Of a stretch of 64,000 nucleotides of DNA, positions 32,050-32,636 are shown piece after piece (the first letter of the stretch is position 1; each line of letters opens with the position of its first letter). The DNA lies in the sequence record PQ390715.1; one strand, given 5' to 3'. The translations under genes and the position numbers were made by a program. This DNA comes from Escherichia phage SHEFM2K. Below the pieces are notes generated by a model, which had not been told where the DNA came from, made no database searches, and saw only the letters and a program-made list of their open reading frames with translations.

Positions 32050-32636
32050 TTATCGTGTTACTTTACTTGCTGCCACATCACGCTTTTTATAGTACTGATT
32101 CCAGATATTGCGGGTTAAACCGTAATCAAGTACTTTAATAAGTCCATTACGATCCTGGCCGATATTCTGTTTTCTGATATCTCTTATCGTTAGTGTTGAT
32201 AATGTATCATCGACGTGTTGTAGTGCATCAGCAAAGCGGTGCTGGCGTTCAATGGCATTACGTTTAATATTGTACTTTAATTCGTTGCACGCGTTAACGT
32301 GCTTCACACTGCCTTTACTTGCAGTACTCAACCGATCCATAACGATAAACATATTATCAGGATCGCATAAATGCATATGCACCTTTGCAAAGTACTGTTT
32401 CAATTGAGGGCGGTCATAGTCTAAAAAATTCCATACCTTACATTCAGTTTCATTTTGTTCTACACCCGCATCACAATTGGCGACCTTAATCACTAACCGA
32501 TCATTTAAAGCGAATACAATACGGGAAGAACCCGCACCGATGATCTCCAGACCAGCTAACCGACAAGCTGAAAGGATCTCTTTGTTGGTTTCCATTTCTG
32601 ACAGGGTACGGATGAATTTAGTATAATTACGCATTG
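32050..32636 (-). CDS. protein kinase-like protein (Ser/Thr kinase fold)
   Basis: GAGSSRIVF..VIKV (Gly loop + Lys), IRDIRKQNIG (catalytic loop), VLDYG (DFG-like); start at ATG 32636 after AAGGAG. Confidence 0.55.

Follow-up and report, generated by a model that had tools for sequence, protein, structure and literature searches.

Can a protein of 194 amino acids, which breaks off soon after its magnesium-binding motif, be a working protein kinase, and what would such an enzyme do for a bacteriophage? The question is raised by an open reading frame on the minus strand of a 64,000-nucleotide stretch of Escherichia phage SHEFM2K (record PQ390715.1; hereafter the window, to which all coordinates refer unless another record is named). 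Its coding sequence occupies 32050-32634, stop codon included, and an earlier note, made from the letters alone, had described its product as a eukaryotic-like Ser/Thr kinase and a plausible host-takeover effector comparable to gp0.7 of phage T7. Our results leave hardly any doubt that the protein has a kinase-like fold. It is a minimal kinase-like protein of the phrog_4301 family that retains a complete set of catalytic residues, yet it falls short of a complete eukaryotic-like kinase domain. By analogy with the T7 kinase (T7K), we lean modestly towards an immediate-early phosphotransferase, probably a low-specificity protein kinase that would act on host proteins in takeover or anti-defence.

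The four motifs that had drawn attention to the gene (GAGSSRIVF, VIKV, IRDIRKQNIG and DYG) are all present, in canonical kinase order and spacing. Their codons lie on the minus strand: those of the glycine-rich loop (G33-AGSSRIV-F41) at 32512-32538 in the translation, with Arg38 instead of the third Gly of GxGxxG; those from the beta3 Lys50 (in VIKV, V48-I-K50-V51) to the helix-C Glu64 at 32443-32487; those of the catalytic-loop-like I150-RDIRKQNI-G159, which includes D152 and N157 and is in register with HRDIKPSN of MKK4, at 32158-32187; and those of D170-Y-G172, the DFG-equivalent Mg-binding motif, at 32119-32127, where GAT TAC GGT appears on the plus strand as its reverse complement, accgtaatc. 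There are 5 residues from D152 to N157, 13 from N157 to D170 and 14 from K50 to E64. The same 5 and 13 residues separate D166, N171 and D184 of PKA. Conservation was counted in 204 copies of the domain, taken from the 182 best database proteins, and the highest values in this family alignment belong to the motif residues: K50 is kept in all 204 copies, D170 in 203, G172 in 202, E64 in 201 and the catalytic Asp in 197, with Y171 in 145. The phrog_4301 family also has a signature of its own, which consists of GxGSSRxVF in the glycine-rich loop (G35 in 193 of the 204, S36 in 184, R38 in 199), the near-invariant, family-specific G57, Q60 and N61 ahead of E64 (197, 198 and 196), and G159 (201).

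A single sequence was not enough to recover this relationship with confidence. On its own, the protein matches Pfam Pkinase below threshold (E 0.0022; 17.9 bits against a gathering cut-off of 31.7) over model positions 26-152 of 263, and a phmmer search of the PDB with the single sequence gives weak matches, all of them to protein kinases. The profile search against kinase families that the earlier note had suggested as a check stayed below threshold by single-sequence Pfam but was positive with a profile of 36 homologues, which reaches MKK4 at E 2.6e-6, in register from the glycine-rich loop through DFG. This profile matches 466 PDB chains at E<1, with protein kinases throughout among the 60 matches listed, and G33xG35, K50, E64, D152-x4-N157 and D170-Y-G172 align in register with MKK4, PAK5 and PknB. 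An AlphaFold2 model computed on the 36-homologue alignment is confident (predicted local distance difference test, pLDDT, 92.7; predicted template modelling score, pTM, 0.89). It runs from two N-terminal helices through beta1-3, a long helix C (55-73) and beta4-5 to helices D and E, the catalytic loop, two short strands, DYG, a short helix (175-182) and a basic tail of low confidence. Foldseek searches of the PDB and BFVD agree with a kinase fold, and in BFVD the neighbours are small and come from many unrelated phages; several of them, including gp0.7-type proteins, are named "protein kinase". The family profile, the confident model and the conserved motif columns together place the motif pattern beyond chance.

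The model also reveals where the protein departs from the fold that had been claimed for it. It contains the bilobal ATP-binding core that defines the protein-kinase-like superfamily, with a five-stranded N-lobe and helix C, helix E, and the catalytic and Mg-binding loops, and it has subdomains I-VII of eukaryotic protein kinases (glycine-rich loop, beta3 Lys, helix-C Glu, D-x4-N and DFG). Subdomains VIII-XI are absent from it: there is no activation segment, no APE, no helix F Asp, no helices G-I and no conserved Arg. The protein ends 22 residues past DYG, with a complete N-lobe and only the front half of a C-lobe, so that the kinase-like fold stands, on profile and structure searches alike, but the complete domain does not. 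The truncation is family-wide, as the median tail past DxG is 22.5 residues in single-domain members, all 38 word-indexed homologues are 191-227 residues long, and 103 of the 182 best proteins of an exhaustive search have at most 240. Since homologues are equally short and have similar tails, the short length is a property of the family, and not the mark of a broken gene copy.

The protein matches phrog_4301 ("unknown function") at E 8.1e-42 over residues 3-188. The exhaustive HMMER search, over 1.84 billion representatives, returned 2,087 clusters at E<=1e-3, of which 253 reach E<=1e-10, a family size of about 2,000 clusters when clustering is at 50% identity. The reading frame is kept in hundreds of clusters, at identities that range from 100% to about 25%. 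The protein of Escherichia phage BF17 is 100% identical and Sharanji gp063 99.5%, and the homologues of RaK2-like Klebsiella, Salmonella, Erwinia and Xanthomonas jumbo phages have about 36-42% identity. No Pfam family covers these proteins, the precomputed Pfam column being empty in 38 of 38 homologues, and our own Pfam scans of 36 close and 83 distant members gave only sporadic sub-threshold matches to Pkinase (16/36 and 5/83), ABC1 or AceK. On the same scans, we rejected membership in the Pfam families Kinase-PolyVal, APH, RIO, Bud32 and ABC1; Kinase-PolyVal (PF18762), for instance, was matched by one of the 36 close members at E 0.088 and by none of the 83 distant ones. The best match to the defence kinases of PADLOC (PD-T4-6; E 2.4e-4) is confined to the catalytic/DFG region and reflects generic kinase similarity.

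The unit of about 190 residues is also found in larger proteins. It occurs in tandem, with two to four copies per protein (three in P0044, four in P0045 and in P0052), and nearly all of the aligned copies retain Lys50 (204/204) and Asp170 (203/204). The 3,248-residue P0157 is a tail tape-measure protein with two copies of the mini-kinase domain, and the multidomain members tested, P0101 not being among them, all match phrog_4301. Tape-measure proteins enter the cell together with DNA. Fusions of this kind therefore point to the use of family members as effectors elsewhere, which supports an effector role here.

That the protein resembles a kinase has been recorded before. Its orthologues are labelled in GenBank as "protein kinase domain-containing protein", "putative protein kinase" or "serine/threonine-protein kinase PknA/PRP4", and one sentence of the description of phage Sharanji, which identifies gp144 as a T7-kinase homologue, mentions WNN14351.1 as "another protein kinase, which function is unknown" (PMC11895373). 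WNN14351.1 is the Sharanji orthologue of the gene studied here, and these independent annotations support the reading as a protein kinase. What we add is the recognition of a minimal, C-lobe-truncated domain with a defined signature in a family distinct from T7K, the large size of this family with its tandem arrays and fusions to injected proteins, the location in a terminal repeat, and a probable bicistronic unit. We regard this as a sound annotation of a candidate effector rather than as a new mechanism.

The parallel with T7 gp0.7, if taken as kinship, did not hold. The protein matches phrog_4301 only, whereas T7K falls in phrog_2828, phrog_15752 and phrog_18305. In hhalign, the two align in register but with a probability of 5% (E 0.0076), and a broader profile raises this to 26% (E 7e-4) over the N-lobe only; a tblastn search of phages with T7K added little. 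The Pfam family PF27024 is precomputed for relatives of gp144 and for none of the 38 homologues of the present protein. On the different PHROGs, the lack of PF27024, the low hhalign probability and a DYG in place of DP(V/L), we rejected membership in the gp0.7 family; no relationship between the two families closer than a shared superfamily can be demonstrated. The true gp0.7 homologue of the same phages is Sharanji gp144, a protein of 224 residues with a DPL motif, PF27024 and a BLASTP match to T7K at 4e-8, which is encoded at 22183-22857 of its locus (L005) and lies outside the window, by collinearity about 14 kb past its end. Because the same phages carry both genes, the mini-kinase and gp144 are not orthologues, and the phage encodes what appear from their sequences to be two truncated kinases of different families.

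Even without demonstrable kinship, T7K bears directly on the question of activity. Its kinase domain comprises residues 1-242, with the DFG-equivalent DPV at 213-215, and in purified form it is active in vitro on thousands of peptides; T7K disarms several bacterial defence systems through mass phosphorylation, and it has diverged homologues in the jumbo phages G17 and Munch, as reported in 2026 (PMC13645617). A gp144-type protein, which we modelled with a pLDDT of 90.4, and the mini-kinase are truncated to the same layout. In all three proteins the C-lobe is cut about 20-27 residues after the Mg-binding Asp (D170 of 194 residues in the mini-kinase, D204 of 224 in the gp144-type protein, D213 in the 1-242 domain of T7K), an architecture whose sharing does not establish homology. 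Since T7K is active with a truncated layout, the main structural objection to an active mini-kinase is removed.

When would the gene be expressed? The window belongs to an Asteriusvirus jumbo coliphage: its DNA is 98.9% identical to that of BF17, and other listed Asteriusvirus records (slurp01, PBECO4, G17 and Sharanji, for example) reach 94-98%. Nucleotide 1 of phage fEgEco12 aligns to window position 48090 in minus orientation, and its repeat of 20,993 bp ends near 28.3 kb of the window, which places the kinase gene in a direct terminal repeat, the early region, at approximately 28290-48090. A terminal repeat of about 21 kb has been confirmed by PhageTerm and restriction digests (PMC13070987). 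The fEgEco12 orthologue, g044, annotated "serine/threonine-protein kinase PRP4", lies within the repeat at 16,161-16,745, and the gene occurs twice in records that hold both repeat copies. The window thus crosses the physical left end of the genome, so that the assembly behind it must have been circularly joined or permuted, with the repeat included only once. Among the genes annotated in the fEgEco12 repeat there are also a 'spackle' protein, a DksA-like zinc-finger protein and a GNAT acetyltransferase (5284-5583, 11479-11736 and 11800-12156 of that record), which are further candidates for host takeover.

The organization of the repeat resembles that of an early region read by the host. Eleven of the twelve perfect TTGACA-N16-18-TATAAT sites in the window lie within it, between 30.0 and 47.7 kb, on the minus strand, which is that of the genes, and the median intergenic gap is 86 nucleotides in the early region as compared to -4 beyond the repeat. 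Many of these spacers carry a promoter cassette (between 29157 and 46505; for example 31820-31951, 38216-38347 and 43875-43974), made up of four overlapping repeat families with 6-11 copies each. Read on the minus strand, it consists of TTGCAA or TTGACA, about 17 nucleotides (often with AGTACT inside), TATAAT, GTTTTACATCRAG as a conserved stretch at the start of the transcript, a GC-rich hairpin, a Shine-Dalgarno sequence and ATG; the hairpin of the 5' untranslated region is conserved, as in GGGGAGAA-NNNN-TTCTCCCC. In the related phage CBB, RpoD-like promoters before short reading frames have been interpreted as belonging to early host-takeover genes (PMC5259590). From promoters of the sigma-70 type such as these, we infer that the kinase gene is read early by host RNA polymerase, and its place in the terminal repeat behind consensus host-type promoters bears out the early, host-takeover setting that the earlier note had proposed. 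This part of the genome is also the first to enter the cell.

In the same note, the gene had been counted among early single-gene units, a description that suits the region, with its consensus promoters and 86-nucleotide gaps, but not the kinase gene, which appears to be the second cistron of a two-gene unit. A gene for an 80-residue protein (32666-32908, minus strand, from the sequence) ends 31 nucleotides before the start codon of the kinase, and neither a promoter nor a hairpin cassette separates the two genes. The nearest upstream sigma-70-like promoter found by our promoter scan and in the sequence (TTGACA-17-TACTAT, 10 of 12 positions; 32937-32965, minus strand) precedes both genes and likely drives them together, and a hairpin with a 12-bp stem (32011-32038, minus strand, from the terminator scan and a regular-expression search) directly follows the kinase stop and likely marks the end of the unit. 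Given this short gap, the promoter upstream and the hairpin after the stop, the two genes are probably co-transcribed. No canonical T-run follows the hairpin on the minus strand, so that its role as a terminator is only inferred. Three near-identical hairpins with 12-bp stems (AAAGGGATTGAYTYCGGTCAGTCCCTTT) are found in the region, at 29750-29777, 32011-32038 and 34731-34758, and each is followed by GCTATTATAT and has its T-run on the opposite strand. These hairpins may close early units, either as terminators or as bidirectional elements.

The association of the 80-residue protein with the kinase extends to distant phages. Its homologues (BLASTP 1e-5 to 1e-9) adjoin the kinase gene on the upstream side, or sit one gene from it, in Erwinia phage Hallingskeid, Salmonella phage SE_PL, E. 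coli phage EJP2 and a metagenomic contig, where the kinases are only about 33-42% identical. A wider look at viral contigs yielded four loci, too small a number for statistics on the neighbourhood. It is missing at that position in RaK2, in XbC2 and in another metagenomic contig (L010) with a 52%-identical kinase, where a ParE-like gene abuts the kinase gene in its place. An alignment of six distant homologues of the 80-residue protein displays two invariant Ser-Thr dipeptides, RFST and K(V/I)(Y/F)ST, and its profile finds nothing in Pfam or the PDB. It is possible, from this slender evidence of sequence and position, that the protein is a regulator, adaptor, partner or substrate of the kinase.

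In the mechanism that we propose, the protein would be produced within the first minutes of infection from a transcript made by the host RNA polymerase. Mg-ATP would be held via Lys50-Glu64, Asn157 and Asp170, and Asp152 would serve as the base while the gamma-phosphate is passed to hydroxyl groups. Because it has neither an activation segment nor a P+1 pocket, the enzyme would be constitutively active and poorly selective, and the phosphorylation of host (perhaps also phage) proteins would aid takeover or blunt defences, as the truncated kinase domain of T7 gp0.7 does. The parts of this proposal do not carry the same weight. Judging from the conserved residues, catalytic activity is probable, and for protein substrates the analogy with T7K makes the case an even one. 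The protein is basic (isoelectric point 9.3, with a median of 9.5 in the close family, and a tail with a net charge of +5), and one may speculate that this charge would bias the enzyme to nucleic-acid-bound targets, as the C-terminal domain of T7K does.

Several observations weigh against this proposal. The single-sequence Pfam match is sub-threshold, and the phrog_4301 family has no biochemically characterized member. Position 157, which is Asn within the protein's own clade, varies across the family (N in 76, H in 61, S in 32 and Q in 24 of the 204 copies). Arg38, Gln60 and Asn61 are invariant and have no counterpart in eukaryotic protein kinases, so that the active site may work differently. 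One member of the family, the 2,130-residue P0134, joins three copies of the domain to GNAT, LigT/2H phosphoesterase and tRNA nucleotidyltransferase domains. The promoter and terminator assignments are consensus matches only. Finally, depletion of Ser, Thr and Tyr, which has been reported for T7K phages and which we tested as a signature of a promiscuous kinase, was not seen in the early-region proteins (17.1% versus 18.4%; p=0.15 in a Mann-Whitney test), although the set used for comparison was weak.

The alternative that survives best, although we consider it unlikely, is a kinase-fold phosphotransferase with a substrate other than protein, which might be RNA or tRNA in the manner of Ark1, a nucleotide or immune signal, or a small molecule in the manner of APH. 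The domains joined in P0134 would fit such a substrate, as would the weak, sub-threshold nucleotidyltransferase matches N-terminal to the domain in P0101 (E 0.004-0.009), the basic protein and tail, the structural matches to APH and Ark1, and the loss of the elements that bind protein substrates (activation segment and P+1 loop). T7K, however, is equally truncated and phosphorylates proteins, and the best sequence-level matches are protein kinases. The helical subdomain that defines APH is absent and none of the 36 close and 83 distant members matches Pfam APH; nor does an RNA-repair fusion in one multi-effector protein settle the substrate. A more specific version, which we regard as a long shot, would make phrog_4301 a second, independent phage 'half-kinase' lineage with RNA/tRNA or nucleotide immune-signal substrates, in which Arg38 together with Gln60/Asn61 would form a phosphate- or nucleic-acid-binding site in place of the activation segment. 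Such an enzyme would enter as the product of a first-expressed gene or within a tape-measure fusion and switch off RNA- or nucleotide-based defence. This version is compatible with the tRNA nucleotidyltransferase, LigT and GNAT fusions, with a size like that of Ark1 and with the basic charge.

It is about as improbable that the protein is an ATPase, regulatory or pseudo-kinase module, similar to Bud32 or RIO, which controls the 80-residue protein or a host partner. A small conserved gene does lie directly upstream in several distant phages, and Asn157 is variable within the family. Against this, the catalytic residues are all kept in the protein's own clade and the catalytic Asp in 197 of the 204 domains, nothing at the level of sequence links it to RIO or Bud32, and the 80-residue gene is missing at that position from the RaK2, XbC2 and 52%-identical relatives. 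A chance resemblance or an unreal reading frame, which the sub-threshold single-sequence Pfam score and the commonness of short GxG, VxK and DxG motifs might have suggested, can be dismissed on our results, given the conservation of the frame across hundreds of clusters, at identities as low as about 25%, the kinases found among the profile matches listed, the confident kinase-fold model and the motif columns that are the most conserved of all. We thus retain as our preferred reading an immediate-early, probably low-specificity protein kinase.

The boundaries of the gene need a small correction. The span of 32050-32636 given in the earlier note describes a real gene, but its end lies 2 nucleotides too far, as the in-frame ATG is at 32634-32632; a Shine-Dalgarno sequence, AAGGAG, is found 8 nucleotides 5' of it (32643-32648, minus strand). 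A longer reading from a TTG at 32691 runs into the upstream gene and is used by no annotated orthologue, and the homologue alignments begin at residue 1 of the ATG-started protein; for these reasons we place the start at 32634. Further upstream, an early gene for an 84-residue protein (32962-33216, minus strand) is, by eye, closely similar to that for an 83-residue protein of the metagenomic contig L010 (3745-3996 of that contig), which matches the Pfam ParE-like toxin domain PF24732 at E 1.9e-10. From this resemblance, the 84-residue protein is a candidate toxin-like fold among the immediate-early genes. Elsewhere in the window, eight consecutive genes for proteins of similar size (358-433 residues) on the plus strand (53291-62984) seem to be the counterparts of Sharanji gp108-117, among which there is an annotated RCC1-repeat protein.

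How does this protein compare with known systems? E. coli YrbL (PF10707, 210 residues) is of similar length, and has the Arg of the glycine-rich loop in the same place (LGTGRHRKCY, as compared to IGAGSSRIVF) followed by the Lys of (I/V)K(I/V). Kinship with YrbL is not significant (hhalign E 0.5, probability 0.1%), and we regard this as a resemblance only. Bud32, RIO1/2 and the archaeal RNA kinase Ark1 have no detectable sequence relationship to the phage protein and differ in their accessory elements. They work in KEOPS, ribosome-maturation or tRNA contexts, which are not applicable to a phage early gene. The aminoglycoside kinases APH(2'')-Id/IVa have about 300 residues, including a helical substrate-binding subdomain that is absent here, and at about 20% identity only the core is similar. 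The Hanks-type kinases (MKK4, PAK5 and PknB; PF00069) are the best sequence-level matches and have the same order and spacing of motifs, but the phage protein covers only about 58% of the PF00069 domain, has an Arg at the third Gly of the loop and scores under the Pfam threshold.

The closest functional parallel that we can offer is T7K. Both proteins are phage-encoded and, as predicted for the mini-kinase, early-expressed, and both combine N-terminal helices and a full N-lobe with a cut C-lobe; T7K relatives also share with the mini-kinase the D-x4-N-x12-D spacing and a stretch of the form 'AG(L/F)xxxGxG ... VIKV'. They differ in the Mg-binding motif, DYG in the mini-kinase as opposed to DPV or DPL in T7K, whose relatives have an invariant TD and then P, in the glycine-rich loop (GxGSSR as opposed to GxG(H/M)(F/Y)S), and in the invariant QNxxE of helix C, which T7K does not have; the shut-off/DNA-binding C-terminal domain of T7K is in turn absent from the mini-kinase. 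The phrog_4301 family has been much less studied than T7K, and it is placed in what appears to be the earliest-expressed part of jumbo-phage genomes. If the 194-residue protein proves to be active and promiscuous as a kinase, it would represent a compact model of the minimal kinase fold needed for catalysis, and phosphorylation of proteins would be a more general strategy of phage takeover or anti-defence than the T7 family alone suggests.

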